A stretch of DNA of 64,000 nucleotides from an uncultured Nitrososphaerota archaeon (GCA_963799845.1 CAWCYI010000006.1:1504001-1568000); one strand, 5' to 3'. Numbered from the stretch's first letter, positions 13,631 to 49,141 are shown. A program made the numbers and translations. The notes: generated by a model not told the origin, from the letters alone.

Positions 13631-15490
13631 TCAACTCGCGGCCACTGCGACAATCGGTTTGCTCCGCGTCTTCGGACGGAATATGTTGTCGGCAATGACA
13701 TTGGCAAACAAGAACACCGCGCATACGGCCAGAAATGCCGAAAGTATTCCGGTGTCAAAGCTCTGGATGTTGAACCAGCTCAAGAGGAAAAATGCCTGAG
13801 ACGTGAAATCATGCGGGTAGACTACTAGCAATAAACTGACGATTGCGTCTAGTATCCCGAGGAAAAGTTGCGAGCCCAAATATCCAAGCTCATAGACTAC
13901 GTACACAAGATATGAGATCACTATCCCCACCGATCCAAAGACTGCAACCGACGGACTGATGTCGTATATCGCGGCGCCAGCCGCAAAGCAGCTCACTCCT
14001 ACGATCAGCGGGAGGATGTCGAGCCGGCTCAAAGTCGAAAAGCTGTGCCCCCGGAGCCAGATAGCGGATAGAGAGATTATGCCCAAACTGATCAGTACGA
14101 GAAAATCCGTAATATCGATCAAAAAGTTCTGGTTTCCGAGAGCTAGTATCAGGATCGCGCCTAGCGTGAAAACGTACGACAGTCTTGAAATGCTCCGAGG
14201 AATAAACCCGTCAATGGCGAGCGCTTCCAAGTGTCTGGATGCAGCTAGAAAGGCGGGTACAAAAGTTGTAATTGTTGCGATGAGAAAGACGATGGCGGTT
14301 AACAGCTCCTGCCCGGGACCGATCGCAAGGTTACTTATGTAGAGAGCAGGAATTGAAGATTGATTCAGGGCGGCAAAGCTCGGATGGAGACTGAAAACTG
14401 CGAGGCCGTAAAGTATGTTGATTATCGACGCTATGACGACGCTTCCAACCATCGCCAGTCCGAGGTACTTGAACTTGGAAATCGTAAAACCCTTCTTGAT
14501 CCAGGAAATTATCGGCACTGATGAATAATCCAGCGCATCACGTTCAAGAGCCTGAATTTCCTGAAACCCGAAAAACAACAGGTAAAGATATCCAGTGTTA
14601 ACAACGAGAGCGAGGGGCCAGTTTCCCCCGGCCGAGCCGGTGTGGAAAATTCCCGAAAGATTCCAGGATCCCCTGTTGCCCAAGAGAATGCTCTGGTAGA
14701 CTAGTATTACCACCATCGCCGAAGTTAGAGCGATCTGTAGATAACCGATCAATTTGAGGAACCGGACTTCAAATAACGCATTTAGTACTGTCCACGCTAG
14801 GAAAACACCTGTGATCAGATAGACGATTATCGTCGAGGAAATCCCAGTTATTCCAAAATTTGCAAGTACTTGCGGCATCAGTTCGAAGTCAAATACAACA
14901 AAGACGATTTTCGAATACGCTGCAAGAGCGGTGTTAGCAATCCACATCGACAGGCGGGAGATAAAGTACCGCACGCTTCGTCCTCCAGTGGCCGCTTTTG
15001 TGAAGGAAGGCCCGCCGACAGCGCCGAGACCCATTCTGGCGGCCTCTGTATACATATCGGCATAGACTTTGGCCATCAGAACCGAAAGAATTGTTGCTAA
15101 TACTAGCGAACCAACAGAAACGAGTTCAAACTGAATTATGTTGAGGGGAATCAGGATGAAAAGAGGCGAGCCTAGAGTGGCTCCGAGTCCTATTGCGAGC
15201 ATGGTACTGAACCCATAGGTTGGTTTTACTACAGATTCCTTCCTTAGACGCTGGAAACGGACCCTCGTTGAGCTTGGGAGAGTCGCGATGAGCGCCACGC
15301 TCGAAAGAATAATTGCAACGAGGGCAGAAATTAGGATGATATCGCCAAATCCGAAATTCACTGAGGCGAGATACGAATATTCATTGACAACGAAAACTAG
15401 CGCAACAAACGCCGCAATGCTGCCTACGACGACTGCAAAGTACTTGAAGAATAGAATTCCATCGCGGAGTGAAGCAGCTCTGGAACCCAA
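13631..15490 (-). CDS. APC-superfamily permease with extra TM segments
   Basis: IGLGATLGSPLF, GGPSF, LFFGFQEI, ASRHLEALAIDGFIP; many TM helices. Confidence 0.8.
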   Translation of the reverse strand: MGSRAASLRDGILFFKYFAVVVGSIAAFVALVFVVNEYSYLASVNFGFGDIILISALVAIILSSVALIATLPSSTRVRFQRLRKESVVKPTYGFSTMLAIGLGATLGSPLFILIPLNIIQFELVSVGSLVLATILSVLMAKVYADMYTEAARMGLGAVGGPSFTKAATGGRSVRYFISRLSMWIANTALAAYSKIVFVVFDFELMPQVLANFGITGISSTIIVYLITGVFLAWTVLNALFEVRFLKLIGYLQIALTSAMVVILVYQSILLGNRGSWNLSGIFHTGSAGGNWPLALVVNTGYLYLLFFGFQEIQALERDALDYSSVPIISWIKKGFTISKFKYLGLAMVGSVVIASIINILYGLAVFSLHPSFAALNQSSIPALYISNLAIGPGQELLTAIVFLIATITTFVPAFLAASRHLEALAIDGFIPRSISRLSYVFTLGAILILALGNQNFLIDITDFLVLISLGIISLSAIWLRGHSFSTLSRLDILPLIVGVSCFAAGAAIYDISPSVAVFGSVGIVISYLVYVVYELGYLGSQLFLGILDAIVSLLLVVYPHDFTSQAFFLLSWFNIQSFDTGILSAFLAVCAVFLFANVIADNIFRPKTRSKPIVAVAAS

Positions 15491-15520
15491 TACTCTTCCC
15501 CCCAGATTTTCAGTTTGATT

Positions 15521-16003
15521 CTAATTTCGAGCATCCTGTCGTTTTTGTTCCATGGCTTTTAGATTCGATGCTGCGATTCGAAGATTATAGAAGGCGCCTA
15601 TTAGAAGCAGGACCGCGATGATAAATTCGCCTACCGGTATTATCGGATTTGAAAGTGACTTTGGCGAGATCGTACTTGCGATCTGGCTAAAATACGAGGA
15701 TAGCTGACCGGGGGAGCTGAATCCTACTACCGACGGGGCAAGAAGCGCTAAACCGACTACTGCCAGAATGGAGGCAAGAACCATCTCACTGATGGCAATG
15801 AGGAGGGACGCCAATCCGCTTTCGGGCTTACGCGAGTTTATCATCGAGACAAACTTCACGATCTCCTCGTCGTGAGAAGAGACGATTTTTTCATTCACGA
15901 GAGTTTGTAACGAAGCATTTGAACCGCTGAGCAGCATCAGAGCTTTTATGTCCAGAAGGAGCCGGCTAAGTACTTCGTCTGTTGAACTCGCAGTGCTTGC
16001 CAT
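15521..16003 (-). CDS. Two-TM hypothetical membrane protein
   Basis: Two hydrophobic segments; co-oriented with the permease. Confidence 0.65.
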   Translation of the reverse strand: MASTASSTDEVLSRLLLDIKALMLLSGSNASLQTLVNEKIVSSHDEEIVKFVSMINSRKPESGLASLLIAISEMVLASILAVVGLALLAPSVVGFSSPGQLSSYFSQIASTISPKSLSNPIIPVGEFIIAVLLLIGAFYNLRIAASNLKAMEQKRQDARN

Positions 16004-16114
16004 TCCGACCCACTTCGGGTCAGCAAGCGGAAATATCTCTTTCGTATTCGTAATATTCCGGAAATCTGAGCGCTAAGCTCCGATTAGTAAAATTTCGACG
16101 TGTTGTAGATTATC

Positions 16115-16690
16115 TTACAGCGAAAAGTTGAGATCTTTCAAACTCTCGATCAAGATCCTGGCAGATTCTTCAGGTGACCCGAGCTCAGTCGCTATCGTGA
16201 TGTCCGGAAACTCGGGTGGCTCGTAAGGATCCTGTATCCCGGTCATATTTTTGATCTCGCCCTTTCTCGCCTTTGCATACAGGCCCTTCGGGTCTCTCTG
16301 TTCGCAGGTAGCAAGAGACGCCTTGACGTAAACCTCAACGAACCTCTCCTTGCCAATAGTTTCTCGAGCACTCTCCCTCGAAACTTTGTACGGAGAAATC
16401 AGTGCGACTATTGAGATGACTCCATTTCGCGAAAGGACCTTTGCGAGATAAGACACTCTTCTGGCGTGTTCTTCCCTATCCTCTCTTGACAAACCAAGAT
16501 CTCTAGACAGGCCCTTTCTTATCTCATCCCCGTCCAAAATCTCAACAAAGCGACCGTAATCGTCCTCTAACATTTTCTTCAGAACGCCGGCCAGAGTAGA
16601 TTTACCGGAACCTGAGAGTCCGGTCATCCAGATTGCAAAGCCCTGTGGCCTCTGGGATTTTGAGCGCTCGCTTATCGCAACGCTGGTCAT
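16115..16690 (-). CDS. cysC: Adenylyl-sulfate (APS) kinase
   Basis: WMTGLSGSGKST, LDGDEIR, ISPY, RDPKGLY, TGIQDPYEPP. Confidence 0.97.
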   Translation of the reverse strand: MTSVAISERSKSQRPQGFAIWMTGLSGSGKSTLAGVLKKMLEDDYGRFVEILDGDEIRKGLSRDLGLSREDREEHARRVSYLAKVLSRNGVISIVALISPYKVSRESARETIGKERFVEVYVKASLATCEQRDPKGLYAKARKGEIKNMTGIQDPYEPPEFPDITIATELGSPEESARILIESLKDLNFSL

Positions 16691-16692
16691 GC

Positions 16693-18096
16693 TTAGGAGA
16701 ACACCTCAGGGATGACTTTGCCGTCCATCCCGTCTTCTGCTGGCATGCCGTACATTTTCAGAACCGTGGGAGCCATGTCTTCTACCTTCGCACCCTTCAA
16801 CGCTCTCGAATTCATGTTCTTTTTCGGATTGTACATTAGGAAGATACCCATCATGGAATGGACAGAGTCATCCGGCCCCGTATCATTCTCGAAAAGATAC
16901 AGCGAATCGTGCCCGACTGTACCTGCCGATCTCCAGTTGAGATCGTCAAAGTATACCATGAGATCCGGTTTATCTCCGATCGCTGTCCCATAAAGTTGAT
17001 CAGGTTCAAAAACCACGTTTTTCATCGGCCGCCCGTTGTTATCCTTTATCGACATGATTTTTGAGGAAAGTTTTTTCTTTTCGGTTTCGAGGTCTTTCCT
17101 TTCGATCACTCCGTTCGGCTCGCGACCCTTTACGTTAAAGAAAATTCTCGCGTAATAACCGCCCCAACCCCAAGCTTTCGTTCTGGACCAGTCGACTTCA
17201 GCCTTGTCGATGTCAGTCATCTTTGTCGGTTTTGTCTTGAACGCAATGTATCCCTCTTGCTCTAACCACTGATTTACGCAAAAGGCGCCAATCATTCCTT
17301 TTGAGCCGTGATCCGAGACGATGAAGGTGATGCAATCGTCTCCAAAGAGTTTCACCAGCCGGCCGATTCTCTCGTCGACCAACTTGTAGTATTCCTCGTC
17401 TAGGTGTTCGTACTGGTTACCCTTCACATACTTTGGATGCTTTGGGTCAAAGAACTTCCAGAAAGCGTGGTGCAGCCTGTCGAACCCAATTTCGTGCATG
17501 ATGAAAAAGTCCCATGGTTTGTTCTTTGCGAGATATTCAGCAACATCAAAGCGTTTTTGCGTCATTTCAAAGAGCTCCTTTCTAATGGCCTCCCTATCCT
17601 CCGTGCGAAAAGTTACGTCAAAAATATACTTCCCTCCGGCGGCGGCTAGTACTTCTTCCTTGAGCTCAGGTGGATTAGTGAATTGCTTGTCTTGACCTGG
17701 AGTAATAAAGCACGAAATGATATCAGTGTTCTCAATCTGCTTTGGTGGATATCCTGGCGGGACTCCAAGAACGATGGATCTTTTTCCTTGTCTTGAAAGA
17801 ATCTGCCAGACCGTGTCTTCCTTTACCGTAGTTGAATTGACTATGTATCCGTCGTTGTAAGAAAAACCTCTCCTATGCCTAAATCCGTAGATTCCCAGCT
17901 TGCCGGGATTTTTTCCCGTCATCATAACCATCCAAGCTGGAACGGTAATTGGAGGATGGCAGGTCTCAAGGTTTCCGTGCATGCCTCTGTCATACATTCG
18001 CTTTATGTTAGGAAGTTTGTCCAAGAGTTTGTCAAACATCATTTCAGGAGGGACGGAATCCAGCCCAATTATCGCTACTCGCTTTCCGCTGCTCAA
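16693..18096 (-). CDS. AlkP-superfamily / type I phosphodiesterase-like enzyme (COG3379-like)
   Basis: IGLDS, PPITVPAW (Thr nucleophile), DRLHHAFW, VSDHG; lies between sat and cysC. Confidence 0.88.
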   Translation of the reverse strand: MSSGKRVAIIGLDSVPPEMMFDKLLDKLPNIKRMYDRGMHGNLETCHPPITVPAWMVMMTGKNPGKLGIYGFRHRRGFSYNDGYIVNSTTVKEDTVWQILSRQGKRSIVLGVPPGYPPKQIENTDIISCFITPGQDKQFTNPPELKEEVLAAAGGKYIFDVTFRTEDREAIRKELFEMTQKRFDVAEYLAKNKPWDFFIMHEIGFDRLHHAFWKFFDPKHPKYVKGNQYEHLDEEYYKLVDERIGRLVKLFGDDCITFIVSDHGSKGMIGAFCVNQWLEQEGYIAFKTKPTKMTDIDKAEVDWSRTKAWGWGGYYARIFFNVKGREPNGVIERKDLETEKKKLSSKIMSIKDNNGRPMKNVVFEPDQLYGTAIGDKPDLMVYFDDLNWRSAGTVGHDSLYLFENDTGPDDSVHSMMGIFLMYNPKKNMNSRALKGAKVEDMAPTVLKMYGMPAEDGMDGKVIPEVFS

Positions 18097-18118
18097 TCCA
18101 ATGACCTTCTAGTACAGA

Positions 18119-19264
18119 TCATTCTACGAAAGGAGTCTTTGACTTCAGAATGATTTCTGATACTTCGGGGCGCATGAACTCTTTGGGCGGAGTCTCGCCG
18201 GATTGGAACATTTTCCTCAGTTTTGTCCCACTGAATGTCAATCTGTCAGATTCGGAATGTGGGCAAATCTTCTCATTCGCAATTCCGGCGCACTTGTTGC
18301 AGTAAAAGAATTCACGGAAAAATACGGCCTGGATGCCAAGATCCGGAAATTCCTTGAAAATCTCGTGCGCCGCATATGGGCCGTAATAATTCCCTACTCC
18401 CGCATGATCTCTGCCGATTGCAATGTGAGTACATCCAAAGTTCTTCCTCATAATTGCGTGCATTATTGCTTCTTTTGGCCCCGCATACTGCATCTCGTAA
18501 TGCAGTACGCTCAAAACGACAGAGTTCTTGGGGTAGTAATTCTTGACGAGCGCCTGGTATGTTTCTAGTATGACCTCGTCAGTGAAATCTCCAGCTTTTT
18601 TCTTCCCCAAGACGGGATTTATGAAAATTCCATCGGCGAAAGCAAGACCTGTCTTTTGTACATATTCGTGCCCTATGTGTGGTGCATTCCTAGTTTGAAA
18701 GGCAATGATCTCCTTCCATCCTTTTTCTTTGAAGAGTACTCTTGTTTCCTTTGGACTGAGGGTGAAATTCTCGAAAGGTCCTTTGTCGAACTTAACGACT
18801 GACTTTAGCCTTCCACCGACAACCCGATCAGATGATGCGTAAATTTTTGCTACGCCCGGATGCGCTTCGTCTTCAGTTCCGAATACCTTCTTGGCATATT
18901 CTTTCTTTGAAATCGAAAACAATTCTCCAAATTCGAGCAGCCCCACCGCGCGCCCGCCGTCATCAACCAATGTAATTTCATCGCTCGCCCCCGCGCTGAA
19001 ACTATCCGGAACGTGGAGCAAAACGGGAATCGTCCAGGGCGTATCGTCTGCGAGCCTCATGTTTTCAATCACGTTTTCGTAATCTGTCTTCCCCATAAAT
19101 CCGGTCAGTGGACTCAGGACACCGGTTGAAATGTTGAACATCTGGACCATTGTCTCATGCGAAACCTGAACGACCACGTTCTCTGCAAGCTCATTCTCCT
19201 TCTCTTGCGAACTTTCGATTGCCCTCACCTGGACAAGTCTTCCGCCGTGTGGAGATAACGACAT
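18119..19264 (-). CDS. sat: Sulfate adenylyltransferase (ATP sulfurylase)
   Basis: PHGGRL, SPLTGFM, AFQTRNAPHIGHE, GRDHAGVG, SGTKLR. Confidence 0.97.
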   Translation of the reverse strand: MSLSPHGGRLVQVRAIESSQEKENELAENVVVQVSHETMVQMFNISTGVLSPLTGFMGKTDYENVIENMRLADDTPWTIPVLLHVPDSFSAGASDEITLVDDGGRAVGLLEFGELFSISKKEYAKKVFGTEDEAHPGVAKIYASSDRVVGGRLKSVVKFDKGPFENFTLSPKETRVLFKEKGWKEIIAFQTRNAPHIGHEYVQKTGLAFADGIFINPVLGKKKAGDFTDEVILETYQALVKNYYPKNSVVLSVLHYEMQYAGPKEAIMHAIMRKNFGCTHIAIGRDHAGVGNYYGPYAAHEIFKEFPDLGIQAVFFREFFYCNKCAGIANEKICPHSESDRLTFSGTKLRKMFQSGETPPKEFMRPEVSEIILKSKTPFVE

Positions 19265-19286
19265 ACGAAAAACACCCACTATTCCT

Positions 19287-19523
19287 CTACAAATAGCCCA
19301 AAGCTTTCAGCCTTGCTTTGATCTCTTCCACATCTGTACTCGTAAAAGGCTCGGGTATGTCTTTCGTCTCGTGCATCGCAACAACCTCTCTCAAGACATA
19401 GGTCACATAATCAGAGACAGATTTGAAACCGCTTTTCTTTATGATCATCTTTTCAATTCTATCATGCAAAGTGATCGGGATAGAAACCGTAGTGTATTTT
19501 GACTGGGTAGTAGTTTGAGGCAT
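19287..19523 (-). CDS. RHH (CopG-like) protein with C-terminal LKALGYL tail
   Basis: TTVSIP...GFKSVSDYVTYVLRE...EEIKARLKALGYL; first gene of the sat operon. Confidence 0.85.
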   Translation of the reverse strand: MPQTTTQSKYTTVSIPITLHDRIEKMIIKKSGFKSVSDYVTYVLREVVAMHETKDIPEPFTSTDVEEIKARLKALGYL

Positions 19524-19574
19524 GATGAAAGTACAAACATAAAATTTGATTATATATAATTAGTGCAGTTTAGG

Positions 19575-19591
19575 GTATCGAACATCGATGC
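19575..19591. promoter_or_regulatory. Palindromic operator A (GTATCGA-ACA-TCGATGC)
   Basis: Just upstream of the TATA box (TTATATAT, about 19550-19558) of the RHH-sat operon; same motif at 45940, 47736, 49253. Confidence 0.6.
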
Positions 19592-20124
19592 ATATCTTCT
19601 TCTGACACATTTGAATAAATCAAGAATGTTTTTGGACCTCTTCCGGTGAATTAAGTTATTACTCTAGCATAGAATTTTCGCTTACACAATTGAGGGGATA
19701 AGCAAAAAAGCGGAGACAGCTCGCAGGGATAAAATAGGATGACTTTGACCGCCTAAAACCAAGCTCGGCAATTGGATTCCGATTTCTGTTTTAGTTCGAG
19801 AATCTTGAATATTGGGTGATACCCCCATGTCGAAGACTCATTGGATCGTGAACATTCCTTCTCCAACCAAATCCTCGAACCTCGAAGCTGCAAACCCTTA
19901 CCTTATCTGTAGAGTTGAATTTTTCCCGATTATCTCTAAACTTAAGATCGGAGAAAAATCTTACATGTAGTTGTTCAAAACCTCGCATATTCTGCACCCA
20001 ATCTGCATATATATTACGAATAAATACAGTGGTCGGGAAATACATTCTTGATGGTTGCAAGATGCCATAGGCTATTCCCGGAAAAACAACTAACAGTTCC
20101 CGAAATAGGAGAAATAGAATCGAA

Positions 20125-21102
20125 TTGAGCGATCAGTATCGGAGAAGGCTTTCCACTAGAATTACCATGGTCATTGATCGGCTGTATGGGCTTGTTCGGG
20201 AGGAGTTCGATCAAATATCCGAACACGTCGACATTGTCGAAATAGGATGGGGCCTCCCGCTCATATGGAAAGAAGAAGCACTCGCTTCGAGAATCAAATA
20301 CTATCGAAAGAACGGCATTCGAGTTTCCACATCAGGCACTCTTCTGGAACACTCCATTTTCCATAATTCTGTTGAGGCGACCCTGAAGAAAGTTCACAAG
20401 CTAGGATTTGACCTGGTCGAAATATCGGATGGAATTATTGATCTCTCGCAGGAGGACAAGATCAGATTTTCCAAGGAAGTAAAGTCGCACGGCTTTGACA
20501 CTCTCATCGCCGTAGGGAAGAAGGATCCCGCAAGTCAGCTTTCTCCCGCGGAGACCGTTTCACAAATCGAAACCGCGCTTTCTTTGAACCCAGTCAAGGT
20601 GGTTTTGGAGGGACGGGAGCGCGGGCGCGGCGTAGGAATTTACGATGAAAACGGTATCATAAAGTGGAACGATTTGAGGTCGATCACGAATAGGATCGAT
20701 CAAAAAGACATCATATTTGAAGCCCCGAGCGAGACCCAACAGGCATCGTTAATCCTCGAGCTTGGTTCGGATGTGAACATCGGCAACGTGGCACTGACGT
20801 CGGTTGCCTCTCTGGAATCTGAGCGCCAGGGATTGAGGTTCGACACGTTCGGGATTGACAGGCCGCAAAAAAACGTCACTGGAGGGCCGTCAGTAAAATT
20901 CGTCTTGTTTGCAATAAGAAATTACCAGCCAGTCGATCAGCAGCAGCTGGTATCAATGACGCGTCTTCCACTGAGAACAGTGCAAAAAGCCCTTGAGCAG
21001 TTGCTAAAGAATAAACTGATCACCGAACATCCAGACTTTGAAGACAGAAGAAGCCGTATTTACAGGACGACCGGAGCTTCGTCTCCAATTTCAAGAAGGT
21101 AG
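20125..21102 (+). CDS. comA: Phosphosulfolactate synthase (ComA)-like TIM barrel fused to a C-terminal MarR-type winged helix
   Basis: TMVID, GWG, VEISDG, VGKK, EGRE, IFEAP, GLRFDTF, then SVKFVLFAI...LPLRTVQKALEQL...DRRSRIY. Confidence 0.85.
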   Translation: MSDQYRRRLSTRITMVIDRLYGLVREEFDQISEHVDIVEIGWGLPLIWKEEALASRIKYYRKNGIRVSTSGTLLEHSIFHNSVEATLKKVHKLGFDLVEISDGIIDLSQEDKIRFSKEVKSHGFDTLIAVGKKDPASQLSPAETVSQIETALSLNPVKVVLEGRERGRGVGIYDENGIIKWNDLRSITNRIDQKDIIFEAPSETQQASLILELGSDVNIGNVALTSVASLESERQGLRFDTFGIDRPQKNVTGGPSVKFVLFAIRNYQPVDQQQLVSMTRLPLRTVQKALEQLLKNKLITEHPDFEDRRSRIYRTTGASSPISRR

Positions 21103-21904
21103 AGTGTTTACTTAATTAGAGCAAGGCCGACATCCATGGCCCAAATTAAACGTCAAGCTAGTTCGAGAGTAATCGAAAGACTGGTGGGCAATCTTTCCGT
21201 TACGCACGACAAAAAAGTTCTAGTCGAGCATTCGCTTCATCTCAGTCTCATGAAGCTGCCAGTCACAGGTGAGACAGAGAAATTGCTTGTGATCAGAACA
21301 GTATGAAACCTCCTCATCGTAACCGCATTTCTCGCAGAAACTGTAAGTTACCAACTAGCTCATGCACGAACTCTCGTTGGACCGCCCTATTTACACTAGA
21401 AGATCGTTTTTGAAATTCGTAATCGGATGATCAGAAATCCCGTCGGAGTGCCTAAATTTACTCCATCTCTGGACATTCAAGATTTCAAAGAATCTGTGAC
21501 TTGATTTAGAATTCTTTGTCTCCTAAATTGGAGTCATCAAGTGGCATTCTCTTTGGAAGAAAAACGATTGGCCAAATCTGGGGCTTTGCGGATTGTAGGG
21601 CCAAGAGAGGGTCTGGAGTTATCGCAAGATTAGTCCTGAGCCGCTCCACGTGACTTCGTACATTCAATTTTCTTCCAAAGGGGTGGTCAAGGCCTGGACC
21701 GAAATAAATCCTCAAGGGACGGGCCTGAGGCGAGTAATCGAAATTTGTGAAGTTGCCAGAAATCTTCTGTAAAACGGGTTCTCGGAATCCTTTCGAAATC
21801 TCTCCGGCCCTCAAAAATGGCGATTCCGTAATCTTGCCTAAAGCGGAAAGTATGAAATCGTTCTGTATAGCCCCTTAAGAACTAAAAATTATGCAGAAAA
21901 ATGA

Positions 21905-21930
21905 AATTAACCCAATAAATTGGGTTAATT
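21905..21930 (-). terminator. Perfect 12-bp hairpin followed by a T-run
   Basis: AATTAACCCAAT-AA-ATTGGGTTAATT directly after the stop at 21931. Confidence 0.55.
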
Positions 21931-22149: not shown

Positions 22150-22493
22150 GCATCAACACGTTCCTTTACTTTCTAGAATCTCAATGATCTGATGAGTAAA
22201 GGCGAGAATTTTATCCGCTATATACTTGACGGCTCGCTTGCGAAAATTCCATTTCACATGTAGAGGTCGTGCCGTTGCAATACAAAGTCCTCTTTTTTAC
22301 GATTAAATTGTCGATAACTGGAGAAAATTGGAATGTCCCTCGACTGGAGACGAACGTGTGCACTTTTTAAGAAAATAGTATGCTAATCATGAAATTAGAA
22401 GCCAAAATTCAACCATTAGGATTGCAGATAATAAGACGAAATCAGGAGTTAGAAATCGTACCTCTAAAATAAGACTTTAGGGCATCAATTCTC

Positions 22494-40920: not shown

Positions 40921-40939
40921 GGTGCTAACTAGGTCTCTT

Positions 40940-41314: not shown

Positions 41315-41436
41315 TTCTTTCTATCGAGAAACTCCCTTTGTTGCGCGGCCAAACCCAATAATCGCCGCATATTAAGAGTTTAACCTTAATACCGATCGGT
41401 CAGGTAATTGGTACAGAGGTCGTGCCGGAAGGATAA

Positions 41437-42285
41437 ATGTCCGAGGCAGACAAATTCCGTGTCGGGACAAGCGGTTGGTCCTACGAGGACTGGGTTGGTC
41501 CCTTCTATCCAAAGCAGGCAAAACCGAAGGACTTCCTGCGGATCTACTCTTCAGTTTTCGACGCCGTTGAGATTGATTCCTCTTTTTACCGCATTCCGAA
41601 TCAATCCATGATCTCGCAGTGGGACAAGAACACCCCATCGAATTTTGTTTTTTGCCCGAAATTCCCAAAGAAGATAACTCACGATTTCAAGCTGGAGAAT
41701 GTCGAAACGACACTCAACTTCTTTTACAAGACCGTTGCGGGCCTGGGGGACAAGCTGGGTCCGCTGGTAGTTCAGCTCCCGCCTTCGTTCAAGTATGAAA
41801 AGGGGTTTCCGGTCCTTGAGAATTTCATTGCGACAGAAATGAAGACTTCCGCCTTCAGACACGCGATAGAATTTAGGCATAAGTCCTGGTTTAGGGATGA
41901 TGTTTACAAACTTCTCGAGAGCAATAACGTCTCTTTTTGCTGGTCGATTACCCAGTATGTCACGACGCCCACGAAACTCACTTCGGACTTTATCTACACC
42001 CGGATGGTCGGAGAAAGGGACATTACAAAATTCAATGAGACGCAGAAAGATCGAAGCAAGCTCATGGGTGAGATGTCGCAGGCCGTCAAGAGCTCCATCG
42101 GATCGGTCGACGATGCGTTCATCTTTTTCAACAATCACTTCGCGGGGTTTGGACCGGAGTCTGTAAACGAATTCAGGAGACTGCTTGGTCTAATGGAAAT
42201 GGATCTGGGCAAGACCCAGTTGCCCAGCGAGAATTTGCCACCGGATACATCCTCGGCACAACAGAAAAGTCTCATGGACTTTTGA
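41437..42285 (+). CDS. DUF72 protein
   Basis: VGTSGWSY.DW...VEIDSSFY...QLPPSF...IEFRH...FFNNH. Confidence 0.92.
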   Translation: MSEADKFRVGTSGWSYEDWVGPFYPKQAKPKDFLRIYSSVFDAVEIDSSFYRIPNQSMISQWDKNTPSNFVFCPKFPKKITHDFKLENVETTLNFFYKTVAGLGDKLGPLVVQLPPSFKYEKGFPVLENFIATEMKTSAFRHAIEFRHKSWFRDDVYKLLESNNVSFCWSITQYVTTPTKLTSDFIYTRMVGERDITKFNETQKDRSKLMGEMSQAVKSSIGSVDDAFIFFNNHFAGFGPESVNEFRRLLGLMEMDLGKTQLPSENLPPDTSSAQQKSLMDF

Positions 42286-42343
42286 TCATGGTCCATTTGA
42301 GAGATAAGCGGCGGAATCTCTTACGCAAAACAAGAACGATTCA

Positions 42344-43462
42344 GTGCAAAGTCGCGTAATTTTTCACGTCGATGTGAATTCGTTCTATCCCTCGGTTGAG
42401 ATAAGACAGAACCCCGACCTTAGGGGCAAGCCTGTCATCGTCGGCGCAGATCCGAAGGAAGGCAAAGGACGCGGTGTTGTGGTTTCATGCTCGTACGAAG
42501 CGCGGAAGTCAGGAATACGTTCTGGGATGCCGATCTCTAGGGCCTATGCAATATTGCCGGATGCCGTCTACCTGCGGCCGAACTTCCCACTTTACTCGAA
42601 AGTATCCAAAAGGATAATGGATCTCCTTCGGTCATACGGAGACAAGTTCGAGCAGGTGAGCATCGATGAGGCTTTCCTTGACACAAGCGAGAGAGTCGGA
42701 GGGGATTACGGCCGGGCAAGAGAGCTCGCGGTTGCTATCAAGGCTGATCTTGAAGGCAAGGAGGGGCTTACAAGCTCCATCGGGGTTGCGCCGAACAAGT
42801 CCAGCGCGAAGATAGCTTCCGAGTTTCAAAAACCGGACGGGTTAACGGTAATTCGGCCCGATGAGCTTCGCAGTTTTCTTGCCCCGCTTAAAGTTTCAGC
42901 GATCAGTGGTGTAGGGAAAAAGACTGAGGAGTTTCTAGGTTCGATCGGAGTCAAGACGATAGGAGACCTGCAGAAAGTTCCCGGGAAAGAACTGGTCAAG
43001 TACTTTGGGAAGACGGGGGTATGGCTCTGGGGAGTTGCAAACGGTCTGGAGAGAATCGAGGTCAAGGAGAGACCTATGAGGTCTCTCAGCGCGGAGCATA
43101 CTTTCGAGAAAGATCTTTCAGATAAGGGGGAGGTTGTATCGAAATTGGAAGAACTCGGACAGCGACTCCACGGCCGGGTGCTGTCTGCAAACGTGGAATT
43201 CAGGGTCGTCGGAATCAAGGTCAGGTTTTCGCACTTTCAGACTTTTACGCGGGAAAACACACTCCAGTTTTACACGAACAAGCTTGAAGTAATCCGTCAA
43301 GAAGCGACGAATCTGTTCCGGGAGTTCGAAAATAACCCGCGAAAGGTCCGGCTGATCGGAGTTTTCGTCGCCGATTTCAACAAGGACCACGGAGAGCAGG
43401 AAGACGATCGCAGCTCACTCGAATCGTGGGTTCCGTCGGAAGAACTCAGGTCGTCTCAATGA
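42344..43462 (+). CDS. dinB: Y-family DNA polymerase IV
   Basis: HVDVNSFY, SYEAR..G, SIDEAFLD, KIASEFQKPDG. Confidence 0.96.
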   Translation: MQSRVIFHVDVNSFYPSVEIRQNPDLRGKPVIVGADPKEGKGRGVVVSCSYEARKSGIRSGMPISRAYAILPDAVYLRPNFPLYSKVSKRIMDLLRSYGDKFEQVSIDEAFLDTSERVGGDYGRARELAVAIKADLEGKEGLTSSIGVAPNKSSAKIASEFQKPDGLTVIRPDELRSFLAPLKVSAISGVGKKTEEFLGSIGVKTIGDLQKVPGKELVKYFGKTGVWLWGVANGLERIEVKERPMRSLSAEHTFEKDLSDKGEVVSKLEELGQRLHGRVLSANVEFRVVGIKVRFSHFQTFTRENTLQFYTNKLEVIRQEATNLFREFENNPRKVRLIGVFVADFNKDHGEQEDDRSSLESWVPSEELRSSQ

Positions 43463-43499
43463 TGATGGTCGCGCTGGGAGTTACAGTTTATGATAGAGG

Positions 43500-43874
43500 C
43501 TAGTCTGCGTTTTCCAATAGGGAAATTTTATGCATCGCCGCTTTGATTATCGCAACGAGACTTCCGGATTCGAGGATGTCGAGCTCGAACCGCTTCTTGA
43601 TCTCCTGGGTGATTGCCCGCTCGATGGCCCATGCTCCAATGCCGAAGGTGGCTTCGATCGATTTGAGAAAGCCTTCCGGATCCCTCAAAATTCCCTTGTC
43701 GCTCGTTCCGTTTTCCTTCATCTTGCTGATCAGCAGCATCCTCCAGTAGATCTTCCTCTCACCGTCCCGTCCCAAAACTCCCAACCCCTCATCAATACAC
43801 TCGATGAGAGCCATCTCGTCCAGACTGTTCACTATGGAACGAGGTTTCGGTTTGATTTTGGAATCTGGACTCAA
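43500..43874 (-). CDS. DUF3227-like protein
   Basis: IDEGLGVLG...PEGFLKSIEATFGIGA..IE..I. Confidence 0.7.
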   Translation of the reverse strand: MSPDSKIKPKPRSIVNSLDEMALIECIDEGLGVLGRDGERKIYWRMLLISKMKENGTSDKGILRDPEGFLKSIEATFGIGAWAIERAITQEIKKRFELDILESGSLVAIIKAAMHKISLLENAD

Positions 43875-43954
43875 GTAATTGCAAACGCTCGTTTAGGGTA
43901 ACGGCTAATGGTTTGAAATATCCCGCTCATGCCGTTTATTGCCTTAGGGAGTGA

Positions 43955-44165
43955 TAATCTATGTTAGGAATCCGGGTTCTGTCCAGTCTTCGTCGTGTGG
44001 ATAAGAAGCTGCGCCAATGACTTATCCCCGCGATTACGACATAACTTGGAAGCATCAACTTTCAGGAGTACTCCGTCTTTACAAGGTTCCTGTACCATCG
44101 CTTCACCTGCTTCCCCTTTCTTAGACTGGAGGAACCTCAGCCAGCCTCTGTGAGAAATGTTCATG
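43955..44165 (-). ncRNA. Putative omega-RNA (reRNA) overlapping the tnpB 3' end
   Basis: Expected position; hairpin GGATAAG...CTTATCC; boundaries suggested by homology with 49269-49470. Confidence 0.65.
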
Positions 44166-45232
44166 ACAGCGGCGACATCTCTATCCCACCATCTCCCACA
44201 CCTTACACACCAGAGCTTACTTCTGTGTACTCTACTGAATCTGTCCTCTTGGAGTCTCTCCCCGCATATTGGACAGAGTTTAGAAGTACCTCTGGTCTCT
44301 GCTTTAGTTAACTGAATTACTGGAACTCCTTCCCATGCAGCCATGTATTCTATTTGTCTTTTGATCTCGTTCCATGGTACCGAATTCATCCTCGCGCGAA
44401 AGTTCTTACCTTGATAATTCCCTTTTCTGTACAGGTTACGCAGTCCATCAATTTGTTCAAATACGATCGCTCCTCGGCCTTCCTTGGCTAGATCTACGAC
44501 ATTCTTCGAAACTTTGTGAAGAATCTGATTTACTCTTTCAGATCTCCGCCTTCCGTATTTTATTGTCAAGATTCTTCGTATTCTGTCATCGTTTCGCTTG
44601 AACGACCTCAACACATCTCTTGTCGATTTTGCAATTTCCTCGACTTTCTTCATGTCGAATAGTACCACTTTATCTGCATTCCCGCAGGTAACATTCGATG
44701 CGTTTCTGTCAATGCCGAAGAAACATTCAGGTTTGAAAGACGCAACAACCTTTCTGAGGGAAAACGAAAGACTGGTGGGAGTCAATGTGAACGACCTCAC
44801 TTCAATTCTTTCCTTTTCGATTGTCTGGATTGTGTGGTTCGTGAGTGGAATTCTTACGATCTTATCTTTCTTGGATATTCGAAAACAAAGGGATTGATCT
44901 TTGATCTTGAACTGAGAGCACGACACCAAAAGCGGTTTCTTGAGACGTGGGTCCTTTGACGTTATTCCCCTCCGTTCTGACTTCTTTCTCGACGAGAGAA
45001 TACCTGCAGCTTTTGAAATTGCGGTCAACCGGTAATAGGATAGAACGTGGAAATACTTCTGCTTCATGTTGGAGTAAGCAAGCAAAGATAGTCTCTTTAA
45101 CGAGGAAACATTTGTTTCGAGTCCAATCCTGATACAATCATTTACCATAGACCTGAATTCATTCATCAGTTCCAGTAACTGCGGAGATGGACTGGCAAGT
45201 GACTGTCTTACTGACTTCAGGGCGAAGACCAT
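43964..45232 (-). CDS. tnpB: RNA-guided endonuclease TnpB with intact RuvC triad
   Basis: GIDRN, VFEQI, TSKLCPICG...CVRCG..WDRDVAAVMNI. Confidence 0.93.
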   Translation of the reverse strand: MVFALKSVRQSLASPSPQLLELMNEFRSMVNDCIRIGLETNVSSLKRLSLLAYSNMKQKYFHVLSYYRLTAISKAAGILSSRKKSERRGITSKDPRLKKPLLVSCSQFKIKDQSLCFRISKKDKIVRIPLTNHTIQTIEKERIEVRSFTLTPTSLSFSLRKVVASFKPECFFGIDRNASNVTCGNADKVVLFDMKKVEEIAKSTRDVLRSFKRNDDRIRRILTIKYGRRRSERVNQILHKVSKNVVDLAKEGRGAIVFEQIDGLRNLYRKGNYQGKNFRARMNSVPWNEIKRQIEYMAAWEGVPVIQLTKAETRGTSKLCPICGERLQEDRFSRVHRSKLWCVRCGRWWDRDVAAVMNISHRGWLRFLQSKKGEAGEAMVQEPCKDGVLLKVDASKLCRNRGDKSLAQLLIHTTKTGQNPDS

Positions 45233-45399
45233 CTTCTTGAGACTTCCGCTAGAGAGATCGACGAACAGCTAGGGGTGCAATAAAATTCGAGCGTTTGATG
45301 AAACTACACCATGGGTAAAGAATAAGCCATGATCCCCTTGGAAATTGGTAAGAAGCTTCAATTCGTTACTCATCTCAAAACCGACAAAGACTGGACAGA
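43975..45399 (-). mobile_element. Non-autonomous tnpB element with terminal inverted repeats and an 8-bp flanking direct repeat
   Basis: TCTGTCCAGTCTTCGTCG (43978-43995) vs reverse complement of CGACAAAGACTGGACAGA (45382-45399): 17/18; GGAATCCG at 43967-43974 and 45400-45407. Confidence 0.7.
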
Positions 45400-45584
45400 G
45401 GAATCCGCAAGAATCTCTCGATACTTTCGTAGACAAGCAAAACTGAATTTTTCAAAATGAGTAAAAGAAATCTGCGTATATGAAACGAAAGAAATTTCGG
45501 AAAGTTTGACGATAAACAGAAGAATGTTCTATTGAATTCAGACAGGAACTGTCTCTTTCGAAGGATGATTTTTAGATCAAAGGC

Positions 45585-45845
45585 TTACGGGTAGAGGGAG
45601 TAGCTCTTTATTTCTTCTCTAACATTTTCCAACTCTTTCTCAGTGAAAGGATTGTATTTCCTTCGGGCGGGCTGTCCATTTTCCAGTTGAGAAACGAATT
45701 CGTCGAGCATGTATGAGATGTAGGAATCCATCGAATCCTTCTGGCCGTAAGGAGCGATATTTCGAATTCTAGCCGCCAGCGTCTTCGGAATCCTTACTTC
45801 CTGCAAGTTTTCGATGACTTTTTGAGACGACAACGTTTCTCGCAA
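45585..45845 (-). CDS. RHH protein; divergent paralog of 19287 and 48905 with a degenerate tail
   Basis: EVRIPKTLAARI...SMDSYISYML...PFTEKELENVREEIKSYSLYP. Confidence 0.75.
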   Translation of the reverse strand: MRETLSSQKVIENLQEVRIPKTLAARIRNIAPYGQKDSMDSYISYMLDEFVSQLENGQPARRKYNPFTEKELENVREEIKSYSLYP

Positions 45846-45939
45846 GAAGGCAGTATGTCAAATTCTGATTTAACCCCTAGGTAGATGCAGTACGGAGCAC
45901 GGATCCATGTTTTCTCGAGTCATTTGGTATAAGTGAATT

Positions 45940-45956
45940 CGATCGAAACTCGATCG
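45940..45956. promoter_or_regulatory. Palindromic operator C (CGATCGA-AAC-TCGATCG)
   Basis: Perfect 7-3-7 palindrome upstream of RHH 45585-45845. Confidence 0.55.
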
Positions 45957-46000
45957 TAATCCACACCTATACGCGACAGTGAGAAAAAGGCTTTGAGGAC

Positions 46001-47671
46001 CTATATCCTCATCTTGCCAGATCGGAGAACTCTTTGGGTAATCTCGCGGATGCTGGTTGCCTTGCTCTCGTCGTAGAACTGAACCTTCCGAGCTGAAAAC
46101 TCGCTTGCTGGGTCGAATACCTCTGCCAATACTTTGCCATCCATGTCGGTTGGCACGTTCAACCCCAGCATGTGGAGGATCGTCGGAGCGAGGTCGATCA
46201 GATTCATGTTCATGTAGATTTTGTGAGTAATGTCCGGCCCGGCTCCCATGAACACTCCCTCCATCCTGTGCGCACCGGTGTAGATCGGATTTGGGGCGAT
46301 CAGCTTTCTGCTTCCGAATTCAAAGACACGTAGCGGATAATTCAGCCAGGTGCTGTCGAAGTAAATGATGTCAGGCGCAGTGTCGTAGAATTGTCCTGAG
46401 TAGATACGATCCTTCGTGTAAATGAGGTCGAATAGAGAGCGGCCTGTCTTTGGATCGTGGACCTGCTTTAGTTTGACGATGAGCTCCGCGATCAAAGATT
46501 CATAGTCATCGCCCCTCTCGACCCTGCCGTTCGGCTCGCGTCCCTTGAGGTTCGCGTAGATTGGACCGTAATTTCCCGAGGCGTAAGCGAGAGTTTCGTC
46601 CCAGTCGATGTCGTCGGTTGAGAGGGTCAATTTCTTCGCAAAAGCTACCTTCTTTGAATCCTTGGAATAGGTGTTGGTCTTGGTATCGACGATGTGCAAT
46701 TTCTTGACCGTGTTGAAGAGGAACTCGCTCGTCACACCCATGTCGAAAAGTCCCTTCCTGAATCTTGTGCCAGTGGTGCGCTTCAGCTTGAGATAATTGT
46801 TGTCGATCAACCAGTTGTTCATGTAGACTGCATAGTAGACTGGACCGAATCCGTGATCTGAGATGACGAAAATGTTGTCCTTTGGATCGAGAACCTTGAG
46901 CAGTTCTCCTACATTTTGGTCGAGTTGCTCGTAGACTCCGTACAGGAGGGGGCCGTAAATTTTCGCCTTCTCCGCGTCATACTTCGGGTGGTTCGGATCG
47001 ATGTGATGCCAGAAAAAGTGGCTCACGACATCAGTCGCGTCGAAAACTGAAATAACGAGATTCCATGCTTCTTCTTTTTTCTTCAGATAGTATTTCAGAA
47101 TCTCAGTTTGATTTTTCGAAATCTCGTTGACCTCGGCTGCGATCCTTTTCTCGTCGCCCTCCTTCAAAAACTGTGGATTTGGTTTGAGGATCGTCGAAAT
47201 ACCTAATTCATTCTTGATCTCGTCTATAACTTCTCTGGGCCACGCAAAATCCCTTCTCGACTCTGGATATGGAAAACCCGAGATCATAACACCATTGACT
47301 TTTTCCGGTGGATAGGTAAGAGGCACGTTTACGATCAGGCATCTCTTCCCCGCTTCTGAAGCGTATTCCCAGATCGCCTTCGCTCCCCTGTCAAGAGATG
47401 TAACCGGGGCATAGTTGTACGTGCCATCTACTCGCTTCGAGAAATCATACATCCCATGCTTTGCCGGATTGCGACCGCAAGCAAACGAGCTCCAAGCAAC
47501 GGAAGACAGAGGAAGTATTGTCGAAATCAGATTACCGGAGCTGCCGCGATCAACCAATCGCGAGAAATTTTTAAGCCGACCCTCGGCAATCATTGGTCTA
47601 ATAATATCAAATGTTGCGCCGTCGAGACCAAGTACGACGACTTTCTTATCAGGATCACTGGTACTAATCAT
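46001..47671 (-). CDS. AlkP-superfamily / type I phosphodiesterase-like enzyme (COG3379-like), second copy
   Basis: LGLDGAT, PLSSVAW, DVVSHFFW, ISDHG, NLKGREPNG, GAHRMEG. Confidence 0.9.
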   Translation of the reverse strand: MISTSDPDKKVVVLGLDGATFDIIRPMIAEGRLKNFSRLVDRGSSGNLISTILPLSSVAWSSFACGRNPAKHGMYDFSKRVDGTYNYAPVTSLDRGAKAIWEYASEAGKRCLIVNVPLTYPPEKVNGVMISGFPYPESRRDFAWPREVIDEIKNELGISTILKPNPQFLKEGDEKRIAAEVNEISKNQTEILKYYLKKKEEAWNLVISVFDATDVVSHFFWHHIDPNHPKYDAEKAKIYGPLLYGVYEQLDQNVGELLKVLDPKDNIFVISDHGFGPVYYAVYMNNWLIDNNYLKLKRTTGTRFRKGLFDMGVTSEFLFNTVKKLHIVDTKTNTYSKDSKKVAFAKKLTLSTDDIDWDETLAYASGNYGPIYANLKGREPNGRVERGDDYESLIAELIVKLKQVHDPKTGRSLFDLIYTKDRIYSGQFYDTAPDIIYFDSTWLNYPLRVFEFGSRKLIAPNPIYTGAHRMEGVFMGAGPDITHKIYMNMNLIDLAPTILHMLGLNVPTDMDGKVLAEVFDPASEFSARKVQFYDESKATSIREITQRVLRSGKMRI

Positions 47672-47735
47672 TGGTGTAGATTAGAGATCCGTCAATCTAT
47701 ATAAAAAAACCTTCCGTGGATTTACGAAAAGATTA

Positions 47736-47752
47736 GTATCGAAAATCGATAC
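47736..47752. promoter_or_regulatory. Palindromic operator B (GTATCGA-AAA-TCGATAC)
   Basis: Perfect 7-3-7 palindrome about 30 bp upstream of the TTTATATA box (47698-47705, minus strand). Confidence 0.6.
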
Positions 47753-47993
47753 ATCATTCGTGAATAAGCTTTGATAAATGTGTTTAGGGCGCTCAACGTG
47801 ATCAATTGATTTTGACCTAGAAAATGAATTTCCTTGTCTCTTTTGAACAAGTCATTCGTTTTGCAGAATATTCTTCGAGAACATGTTTTACGGAAGCGAA
47901 CCAAATTCATAAATCCCTTATATTGATCAAGTCGTCTGAATCCCTATTAATGGGGTTATCCGATCTTCCAGCGATTTTTGGCGAAATAAAATA

Positions 47994-48887
47994 ATGTTTG
48001 TTATTCCGTACTTGGTAGTTGTCTTGGGGATATTCATCCTGGGAGTGATCACTGGTGGTTTATCTAACGTGACCAGCGGTGGCGCAGGTGTCCTCACAAT
48101 CTACGTCCTCGTAAATTTCGCCAGCATTGAGCTGCAGAGCGCGACCGGCACGGTTCTTGCGGCGTCTGCAGTCTTCGTATTAATCGGCGTTGTCACTTTT
48201 TTCAGAAGAGGTCAGGTAGATACCCGGCTCGGCATCACTGTAGGACTGTCCGGCGTAGTGGGCGCCTTTTTTGCGGCAAGATGGGCATCGACAATAGATT
48301 CAGCTTCACTTGAACACATTTTTGGAGCGTTTACTCTCGCGCTGGCGTTTTTCACCTCTTACCTCTTCTTATCAGACTGGAAGAAAAGCAAGGCTATCAA
48401 AGTTGGCAACTCGGCCCCGAAAATCGCCCAAACTGCGGATGTGAAACTGCCAGTTCAGCTCCAGATGCAACAACCGGTCTCACGGTTCTCGGGAACCAGC
48501 CCGATGGCTCTGAGCGTCCAGATCGTAAAGGGAGTCCTGATAGGGATCGCCACCGGCCTCTTCGGCGTCGGACTGGCCAGCCTCAGCGTAGTCCTCTTCC
48601 TGCTGTTGTTCAAGCTGGATACGAAGATGGTTTTGGGAACTAGTCTTTTTGCGTCATTTTTCAGGTACGCTGGAGGTTCGCTCGGGTACCTCTCCACGGG
48701 ACAGATTGATACTTTTTACTTCCTGATACTCGTGGTGGGAGGTGGAATTGGGAGTGTTATCGGCGCGAGGATGGTACTTGGAACTGGAATCGCGTCAAAA
48801 GACATTCTGATAAAGATGGTTCAGGTCGCTATCCTGATTTTCATCAGCTACGAATTTCTGCTAAAATACCTTATCTTCGGACATTAA
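47994..48887 (+). CDS. TauE/SafE sulfite exporter family protein
   Basis: Two repeats of G..G..SGG.G / G..TGLFGVG; ATGT and LGTSL; about 8 TMs. Confidence 0.85.
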   Translation: MFVIPYLVVVLGIFILGVITGGLSNVTSGGAGVLTIYVLVNFASIELQSATGTVLAASAVFVLIGVVTFFRRGQVDTRLGITVGLSGVVGAFFAARWASTIDSASLEHIFGAFTLALAFFTSYLFLSDWKKSKAIKVGNSAPKIAQTADVKLPVQLQMQQPVSRFSGTSPMALSVQIVKGVLIGIATGLFGVGLASLSVVLFLLLFKLDTKMVLGTSLFASFFRYAGGSLGYLSTGQIDTFYFLILVVGGGIGSVIGARMVLGTGIASKDILIKMVQVAILIFISYEFLLKYLIFGH

Positions 48888-48904
48888 ATTTAGAGCGCTT
48901 CTGA

Positions 48905-49141
48905 TCACATGTAGCCCAGAGACCTCAGGTGTTCCTCGACGTCTCCCTGCTCCTTCGCAGAAAAGACTTCCTCGGTCTTGGGTTTCGTACCTTCGATTTC
49001 GTCAAGCATTTCAGTCAAAACGTACACCACGTAATCGTCCATACTCTTGAAATCGCTTTTCTGTAGACGGCGACGAATCCTCTCCGCGAGCTCTTTCGGA
49101 AGATGTACCGTTGTTGTGTCGATTTCGGAATTGTTATCCAA
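48905..49141 (-). CDS. RHH protein with C-terminal LRSLGYM tail
   Basis: TTVHLP...DFKSMDDYVVYVL...DVEEHLRSLGYM; inferred TTG start gives 78 aa, the same length as 19287-19523. Confidence 0.85.
   Translation of the reverse strand: MDNNSEIDTTTVHLPKELAERIRRRLQKSDFKSMDDYVVYVLTEMLDEIEGTKPKTEEVFSAKEQGDVEEHLRSLGYM

Follow-up and report, generated by a model that had tools for sequence, protein, structure and literature searches.

Why should an organism make 3'-phosphoadenosine 5'-phosphosulfate (PAPS) when nothing in its genome can be recognised as using it, and what do the regulators and metalloenzymes encoded next to its PAPS genes do? These questions are raised by a stretch of 64,000 nucleotides (the window, C6:1504001-1568000 of the surveyed genome, G000) from an uncultured Nitrososphaerota archaeon. 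Two of its loci combine alkaline phosphatase-like (AlkP) enzymes of the COG3379 family with small ribbon-helix-helix (RHH) proteins that end in a helix-LGY tail, and the first locus also carries sat and cysC, which encode ATP sulfurylase and the kinase of adenosine 5'-phosphosulfate (APS). The reading that we favour, with middling confidence, is that of a conserved PAPS module with RHH/AlkP trigger-enzyme pairs, in which the tail of the regulator would dock in the catalytic cleft of the enzyme, and AlkP1, the enzyme of the first locus, would act as a helper hydrolase on a pyrophosphate (PPi)-type by-product.

Many archaea (Thermoproteota, Asgard, Thermococcales) and members of several bacterial phyla have PAPS genes but no known PAPS consumer, and the one uncharacterised enzyme of the operon comes from a very large family without known function or solved structure. 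A tail of 20 residues shared by regulators and enzymes could lead to the function of this family, to a trigger-enzyme circuit and to a narrower search for archaeal sulfotransferases. The gene cluster as such is known; the novelty lies in the shared helix-LGY tail, its spread in trans and in cis, its modelled fit to the cleft and the candidate operators. The genome surveyed comprises 4.6 Mb in 9 contigs and is 86.7% complete, and close homologues of its proteins are labelled Nitrososphaerales or Nitrososphaerota archaeon in NCBI sources.

Tailed regulators and tail-less enzymes

The genes that carry the argument are the following.

19287..19523, minus strand: RHH1, 78-aa RHH protein with C-terminus EEIKARLKALGYL, head of the sat operon
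18119..19279, minus strand: sat, ATP sulfurylase (PUA_2 and ATP-sulfurylase domains; PF01747 at 9e-92, NCBIfam NF003166 at 2.4e-145)
16693..18096, minus strand: AlkP1, tail-less COG3379 / PF01663 metalloenzyme of 467 aa, resembling nucleotide pyrophosphatases/phosphodiesterases (NPP) (PF01663 at 1.9e-42)
16115..16690, minus strand: cysC, APS kinase (PF01583 at 6e-61), with a C-terminal helix ..LIESLKDLNFSL that resembles the LGY tail
46001..47671, minus strand: AlkP2, tail-less PF01663 paralogue of 556 aa with a Ser nucleophile (PF01663 at 3.3e-35)
48905..49141, minus strand: RHH2, 78-aa RHH-LGY paralogue with C-terminus DVEEHLRSLGYM (..EEHLRSLGYM)

Open reading frame (ORF) calling and Pfam matches bear out the organisation described in an earlier note on this DNA. 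At locus 1 the order is RHH-sat-AlkP1-cysC-membrane protein-permease, all on the minus strand, and locus 2 consists of an AlkP and an RHH gene together with a TauE gene and another RHH gene. The two 78-aa RHH proteins end as that note had stated, and both AlkP enzymes indeed lack such a tail, their C-termini being ..KVIPEVFS (AlkP1) and ..RVLRSGKMRI (AlkP2); the two score 146.5 and 122.8 bits against PF01663, for which the cut-off is 23, and NCBIfam added no family to this. The 78-aa form of RHH2 uses a TTG start at 49141 within a longer frame that reaches 49228, and orthologues of 78-79 aa favour this start.

The pairing of tailed regulators with AlkP enzymes is seen throughout the genome, which has six PF01663 genes. 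A six-frame scan for a C-terminal L..LGY.{0,3} gave seven matches, namely four RHH proteins, the C-terminal piece of one PF01663 protein and two short ORFs, of 42 and 61 aa, that probably match by chance. All four RHH-LGY genes are at most two genes away from a tail-less COG3379 paralogue: AlkP1, AlkP2 and two further enzymes, A4 (C4:634734-636335) and A6 (C6:1475177-1476655), whose RHH genes are convergent and overlap the 3' end of the enzyme gene. This pairing is not due to chance. Both A4 and A6 have as neighbours GT2/GT4 glycosyltransferases, a DegT aminotransferase and a GFO/IDH/MocA oxidoreductase; for A6, an Atlas search gave nothing further than PF01663. The fifth paralogue (C4:1006995-1008504, locus L044) bears the only cis LGY tail of the genome (..NLRRLGYT). 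Its ORF is split by a frame change into pieces of 377 and 124 aa, the orthologues in L078 and L099 being intact at about 500 aa, and the split may reflect either a pseudogene or an assembly error.

RHH1 has 582 homologues, and all of the 120 listed (74-99% identical) have L.(A/S)LGY at the end of the tail, followed by a single last residue. When 42 RHH orthologues and paralogues are aligned, F33, L72, L75, G76 and Y77 are the positions that never vary. Since L72, L75, G76 and Y77 belong to the tail and the DNA-binding part varies, the tail is the more constrained of the two. RHH1 itself has no match in Pfam or NCBIfam; the family profile gives a weak match to the RHH domain of NikR (positions 9-51, E 0.028-0.036), and JGI labels the homologues as Arc/MetJ-type RHH regulators. 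An RHH fold is likely for the tailed proteins.

RHH repressors often use C-terminal extensions to oligomerise, and it could be supposed that the tail serves the RHH protein itself, in higher-order oligomerisation or cooperative DNA binding, its likeness to enzyme tails being convergent and the docking described below an artefact of a score whose calibration is rough for user-supplied alignments. We consider this very unlikely. The pattern of about 20 residues recurs on enzymes of many phyla, all three docking controls scored 0.00, and the RHH1-like paralogues that are losing the tail do not lie beside sat or AlkP genes: those of L019-L021, 51-56% identical to RHH1, end in ..LEALGAM, ..LEALRAL and ..LIALSVM, and in the stretches fetched around them no AlkP, sat or cysC was found.

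That the tail is common on COG3379 proteins, as the earlier note had stated, is borne out. The AlkP1 family counts 13,326 representatives at E <= 0.001; among the best 150 of these 50%-identity representatives, 25 carry the tail in cis, about one homologue in six, with a pattern of some 20 residues, ..[FY]S/TxxE/Dxx(I/V)xxRL(K/R)xLGY(I/L/M). The survey of neighbourhoods that the same note had suggested shows that tail-less enzymes co-occur with free tails. A scan of named genomes gave 359 AlkP1 relatives, and for the best 80 of them (48-93% identical) the genes within 5 kb of AlkP1 were counted: RHH-LGY is found in 65/80, sat in 60/80, cysC in 70/80 and all three in 52/80, while none of the 80 enzymes has a cis tail. 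These loci come, among others, from Bathyarchaeia, Methanomethylicota, Asgard archaea, Aminicenantes, Acidobacteriota, Eubacteriales, Paenibacillus, Desulfotomaculum and Rubrobacter, with AlkP1 about 50% identical between archaea and bacteria. Fifteen of the 80 have no RHH-LGY within 5 kb; eight of these loci are shorter than 10 kb, and five are actinobacterial (four of about 17 kb, one short).

Concerning the regulator, an RHH match was found in 22 of 61 relatives (10 of 12 in the window's own family) and, when 301 genomes of the phylum were searched with a profile, in 75. Of these loci the best 20, each from a distinct genome, include sat in 17 cases, AlkP1 in 14 and any AlkP gene in 16, many of them with two RHH-LGY genes. 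The order RHH-sat-AlkP1-cysC is syntenic in L007-L015 and L017 and was also seen in L065-L144. The module is old and widespread.

Modelled docking of the tail and candidate operators

The catalytic core of AlkP1 is intact, judging from its sequence. Thr51 is the nucleophile, position 51 being T or S in 95 of 104 aligned sequences, and the metal ligands D13, D206, H210, D262, H263 and H413 are kept in 92-98 of the 104 and in the genome's own paralogues. Within the AlkP1 group R75, D160, R207 and R325 are conserved, but they vary in the paralogues, which therefore probably act on other substrates. A test for formylglycine sulfatases was negative: AlkP1 has no PF00884 match, and the nucleophile motifs PPITVPAW (AlkP1) and PLSSVAW (AlkP2) are not C/S-x-P-x-R. 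The AlphaFold2 (AF2) model of AlkP1 has a mean predicted local distance difference test score (pLDDT) of 97.4. Its nearest solved folds are ENPP1 and the Xanthomonas (Xac) NPP, at TM 0.55-0.59 and 13-14% identity, and a sequence search of the PDB with AlkP1 matched no entry. AlkP1 shares with these enzymes the two-metal site and the Thr nucleophile, and differs from them in the additional conserved R75, D160, R207 and R325 and in the peptide-binding cleft of the model.

A complex of AlkP1 and RHH1 was modelled, as the earlier note had proposed, and an interaction is predicted, with an ipSAE of 0.67 (runs 0.70, 0.67 and 0.67) against 0.00 for the best of three controls. In the calibration of the ipSAE mark, 58 of 80 solved complexes and 2 of 110 mismatched pairs reached it, counts that hold roughly here because our own alignments were supplied. 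The partner has a pLDDT of 76, and the contacts agree to at least 89% between runs. They join residues 64-78 of the RHH1 tail to AlkP1 residues 50, 71-78, 160, 206-207, 210, 311-314 and 325; L75 touches D206, R207 and H210, and G76/Y77 touch 313, 314, 389, 71 and 72. Since the interface includes metal ligands and near-invariant residues (R75, D160, D206, R207, H210, G312/G313, R325), the tail in the model closes the catalytic cleft like a plug or lid. The AF2 model of P0127, a homologue with a cis tail, shows a linker (461-470) at pLDDT 57 followed by a tail helix (471-484) at pLDDT 86, which is what a docked cis helix would give. Modelling thus supports binding of the RHH tail in the AlkP1 cleft. 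Two roles had been suggested for the tail, a docking motif supplied in trans and a Tyr sulfo-carrier. The complex model, the invariance of the tail and the cis tails speak for the first, whereas nothing was found in support of the second, L75 and not Y77 facing D206 and H210 in the model.

It could also be that the tail is an assembly tag, joining RHH, APS kinase and AlkP paralogues to one another or to a common partner, with the fit to the cleft incidental and AlkP1 a plain pyrophosphatase or a PAP(S)/APS nucleotidase, PAP being 3'-phosphoadenosine 5'-phosphate. The APS kinases would suit such a tag: those of L007-L015, L025 and the window have C-termini of the form L(K/E)xL(G/N)(F/Y)xL, near the tail motif. 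Solved APS kinases possess this helix natively, the alignment with 5CB6 extending to the last residues. RHH-sat pairs without AlkP point the same way, as do the two RHH-LGY genes in many clusters (10 of 53 archaeal loci outside Asgard). We nevertheless think the tag unlikely, because the tail is modelled in the AlkP1 cleft and scores nothing with the controls, because AlkP enzymes themselves carry cis tails modelled as docked, and because every RHH-LGY gene of this genome adjoins an AlkP gene, at two loci in the company of no other sulfate gene.

In the trigger-enzyme reading, the RHH proteins would be small Arc/MetJ/CopG-type regulators of their own operons and the helix-LGY tail would be the peptide by which they dock in the catalytic cleft of the NPP-like AlkP enzymes of COG3379; it is through docking of the tail in the cleft that regulator and enzyme would form a pair. 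With the cleft free the tail would be bound, with substrate in the cleft it would be released, and transcription from ATCGA-N3-TCGAT operators would follow the flux of the pathway. AlkP1 most likely would remove a PPi-type by-product and so pull ATP sulfurylase forward. A C-terminal tail of a partner or regulator that enters the active site of an enzyme, and so relays substrate occupancy to the regulation of the same pathway, is known from CysE-CysK, from CymR-CysK of Bacillus subtilis and from TnrA/GlnR with glutamine synthetase. CysE/CymR-CysK is the closest working analogy, the likeness being a tail in an active site, here in a model; the folds are unrelated to RHH and AlkP, and the LGY tail, unlike those tails, is also fused to the enzyme family itself. 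RHH-class type II antitoxins (ParD, CcdA, RelB) likewise combine an RHH dimer with a flexible tail that folds on the partner and modulates autoregulation. Their partner is a toxin, whereas here it is a metabolic enzyme and the module is chromosomal and conserved across phyla.

The candidate sites upstream of these genes are listed below.

19549..19560: palindrome ATTATATATAAT, some 25 nt upstream of RHH1; probably a TATA box, which may overlap an operator
19577..19589: inverted repeat ATCGA-N3-TCGAT, a candidate operator, also upstream of RHH1
45942..45954: ATCGA-N3-TCGAT between AlkP2 and the 86-aa RHH paralogue, before the latter
47738..47750: inverted repeat GTATCGA-AAA-TCGATAC, upstream of both AlkP2 (by 73 nt) and TauE (by 250 nt)
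49217-49229 and 49255-49267: one-mismatch copies of the repeat before RHH2

In eight aligned upstream regions, TAATTATATATAAT is present in the window's own and in those of L007, L008 and L011, partly in that of L009 and as a variant in L010, L012 and L015, and ATTATATATAAT has two copies in the 4.6-Mb genome. L007 retains the repeat at 19577, as does L008 apart from a single base. Exact copies of ATCGA-N3-TCGAT number 16 in the genome, three of them in intergenic promoter regions of the two loci; one-mismatch copies in the window (8 against 4.5 expected) are not significant alone. As far as the sequence can tell, it is the placement of the exact copies that matters, and we infer that these sites would be operators bound by the RHH proteins. 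The repeat was also used to look for a wider regulon, and no PAPS consumer emerged: eight of the 13 exact copies outside the window lie in coding frames, and the other five, which are intergenic, have as neighbours genes for a thiolase-like protein, a molybdopterin oxidoreductase and a TrmO-like protein, besides five ORFs that match nothing in Pfam.

AlkP1 chemistry and the missing PAPS consumer

The earlier note had seen no PAPS reductase, sulfite reductase or canonical sulfotransferase in the window, and this extends to the whole genome, where a conventional PAPS consumer was looked for in five families and none was found. There are no matches to PAPS_reduct (PF01507), NIR_SIR (PF01077), Sulfotransfer_3 (PF13469) or Sulfotransfer_1 (PF00685), and none to Sulfotransfer_2 (PF03567), which says little as no control genome matched it either. 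In the genes of both loci no PF00685, PF13469 or PF03567 domain is present. Of these families, four were counted in 27 genomes chosen for the RHH-AlkP pair; 19 of them were confirmed to have the full module, and the other eight have an RHH match within about 3 kb of a PF01663 match. NIR_SIR is found in four of the 27, Sulfotransfer_3 in two (one over the cut-off) and Sulfotransfer_1 in one, whereas 21 have PF01507 domains, for the most part within proteins 430-660 aa long. The single Sulfotransfer_1 gene (G257:C20:14562-15194, about 7063-7695 of L059; 280 aa) stands directly before a second RHH-LGY gene and beside an AlkP2-like/AlkP1/RHH/sat/cysC cluster, so that in this genome the module seems to feed an ordinary sulfotransferase. 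Separately, L051 has a PAPS_reduct-domain gene of CysH size (277 aa; G308:C65:4494-5084) just upstream of two RHH-LGY genes and an AlkP6-like gene.

A related cluster was described by Jin et al. (2021) in Pyrococcus yayanosii (PMC8268124), of which excerpts are considered here. There, pych_17520-17560 comprise copG, sat, a DHH pApase, a type I phosphodiesterase and cysC, with TauE nearby, and the same cluster is reported in Ferroglobus, Aciduliprofundum, Aeropyrum and Ignicoccus. The pApase was characterised, the phosphodiesterase was speculated to degrade PPi, and KEGG gave no sulfotransferase or enzyme for the step from sulfite to sulfide. According to these excerpts the similarity to our window is close: a small CopG/RHH protein, ATP sulfurylase, a PF01663 enzyme, APS kinase and TauE nearby, in organisms without a recognised sulfotransferase or sulfite-to-sulfide step. 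The P. yayanosii cluster differs in having the DHH pApase inside, of which the window operon has none (three DHH genes lie elsewhere in the genome), and the excerpts do not mention a shared tail or a contact between regulator and enzyme. For the cluster, this was the only paper that our literature search returned, and none was found on the shared tail or such a contact.

What AlkP1 may do is suggested by its fusions. Nine long AlkP1 homologues include Sat-AlkP (P0132), a tailed CysC-AlkP (P0137), AlkP-pyruvate kinase barrel-Sat (P0191), a tailed AlkP-pyruvate kinase barrel (P0246), sugar-1-phosphate nucleotidyltransferase-AlkP (P0227) and AlkP-GT2 (P0126); the other three have AlkP domains only. 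Sat and sugar-1-phosphate nucleotidyltransferases release PPi and pyruvate kinase regenerates ATP, and removing the one and restoring the other both help to drive PAPS synthesis in vitro. In L053 a DHH/DHHA1 pApase lies between sat and AlkP1, and no family-I soluble pyrophosphatase was found in our genome, where only an H+-pyrophosphatase was seen. The match to this last enzyme (C4:138941-141005) is split over two frames, of 155 and 615 aa. From the fusions to PPi-releasing enzymes and pyruvate kinase, the pApase in the operons of L053 and P. yayanosii, the published speculation on the P. yayanosii phosphodiesterase and the missing family-I enzyme, hydrolysis of a PPi-type by-product is rated the highest of the possible activities, at somewhat less than an even chance. 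PAP phosphatase was marked down as an activity of AlkP1, since the DHH pApase holds that step in L053 and in P. yayanosii, as far as the excerpts show (PMC8268124).

The earlier note had proposed that the COG3379 enzymes are non-canonical PAPS-dependent sulfotransferases working through a covalent sulfo-Thr/Ser, with the tail docking as acceptor, carrier or switch. In favour of this, sat and cysC stand in a genome with no match to a PAPS reductase, a sulfite reductase or Sulfotransfer_1/2/3, consumers are rare in the 27 RHH-AlkP genomes, and the pApase in the operons of L053 and, in the excerpts, P. yayanosii (PMC8268124) implies that PAP is made where AlkP1 is the sole uncharacterised enzyme. 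The glycosyltransferase clusters of A4 and A6 and the AlkP-GT2 fusion point the same way, and there is a precedent in AlkP-core proteins, Agl30 and Agl31 of Halobacterium salinarum, for which excerpts of Zaretsky et al. (2025) report N-glycan sulfation by deletion and heterologous expression (PMC11980604). In Hfx. volcanii, Agl7 is needed for sulfation of DolP-hexose, according to an excerpt of PMC3892788. Like our enzymes, Agl30/31 are archaeal AlkP-core proteins in organisms that lack canonical sulfotransferases, and A4 and A6 also sit in glycan clusters; as far as the excerpts go, however, Agl30/31 are sulfatase-like, with sulfatases as nearest structures, while ours, known from sequence, belong to PF01663 and are NPP-like, with a Thr/Ser nucleophile and no C/SxPxR. 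Moreover, about 50% identity of AlkP1 between archaea and bacteria is more in keeping with a small, fixed substrate than with a variety of acceptors, the fusions suit a helper hydrolase, G257 has a canonical Sulfotransfer_1 beside the module, and the Tyr carrier has nothing in its support. The proposal is unlikely as a whole, and so it is for AlkP1 in particular; for the paralogues in glycan clusters a sulfotransferase role is more open. In a wider form, COG3379 would provide the missing PAPS-using sulfotransferases and the LGY helix would be a family-wide pseudo-substrate gate, an auto-inhibitor in cis and in trans a part of the RHH repressor, and sulfation capacity would be switched at the same time as transcription. 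This is rather improbable; if true, COG3379 would supply the sulfotransferases of many archaea and bacteria that make PAPS without a reductive pathway or canonical sulfotransferases.

Several observations weigh against a PAPS module with RHH/AlkP trigger-enzyme pairs, which we continue to prefer. Sequence support for the RHH fold is weak (no Pfam match, NikR at E 0.03). The docking comes from one modelling method, and its interface residues are those of the active site, conserved in any case; because similar tails are present on APS kinase, the partner of the tail might be other than AlkP. RHH-sat without AlkP is found in L023, L024, L058 and L062, within stretches of up to about 8 kb on each side of RHH (L022 also has RHH-sat only, on a contig of just 4.3 kb), and actinobacterial AlkP1 orthologues of Thermoleophilia and Rubrobacter (L106, L107, L109, L111, L116; 52-55% identical) have no RHH, sat or cysC nearby, so that the partnership is not obligatory. 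Three of these (L109, L111, L116) adjoin an ABC ATPase and a sulfatase-like gene, neighbours that L106 and L107 lack. The nearest folds of AlkP1 are phosphodiesterases, and its role on PPi is one that we infer. Finally, as 23 of the 27 RHH-AlkP genomes are without sulfite reductase and 25 without a canonical sulfotransferase, the PAPS consumer is still missing.

Accessory genes of the two loci

The remaining genes of the two loci are as follows.

13631..15490, minus strand: permease of 619 aa, without Pfam match, APC-like by Atlas features; candidate sulfate importer
15521..16003, minus strand: membrane protein of 160 aa, kept with the operon in close relatives only (L007, L008, L065, L072, L101)
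45585..45845, minus strand: diverged RHH paralogue of 86 aa, with tail ..EEIKSYSLYP and without LGY (RHH profile at E 8.5e-8)
47994..48887, plus strand: TauE/SafE-family anion transporter (7.5e-29)

Neither the 619-aa permease nor the 160-aa membrane protein matched a family in Pfam or NCBIfam, and they are found downstream of cysC in the closest relatives only. In other lineages TauE, a Na/sulfate symporter or an ABC transporter occupies this slot, and the two proteins are possibly a new sulfate importer. TauE recurs close to the module; in L046 it follows cysC in one operon. The 86-aa RHH paralogue has orthologues in L029 and L034.

A short-chain dehydrogenase/reductase (SDR) gene continues the operon in several bacterial loci (L123, L129, L131, L133-L135, L137, L139, L140 and L142, from Aminicenantes, Acidobacteriota and Eubacteriales). 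It was considered as a UDP-sulfoquinovose synthase and rejected, its best matches being UDP-sugar 4-epimerases (TviC, GalE), below curated cut-offs. In L121 (Desulfotomaculum copahuensis), AlkP1 has 777 aa, longer than the enzyme alone, and is followed by one ORF and then by an SDR and a nucleotidyltransferase gene. Between the two loci of the window, an ORF of 422 aa at 43964-45232 has C-terminal CxxC pairs and appears by eye to be of the IS200/IS605 type, TnpB/OrfB-like.

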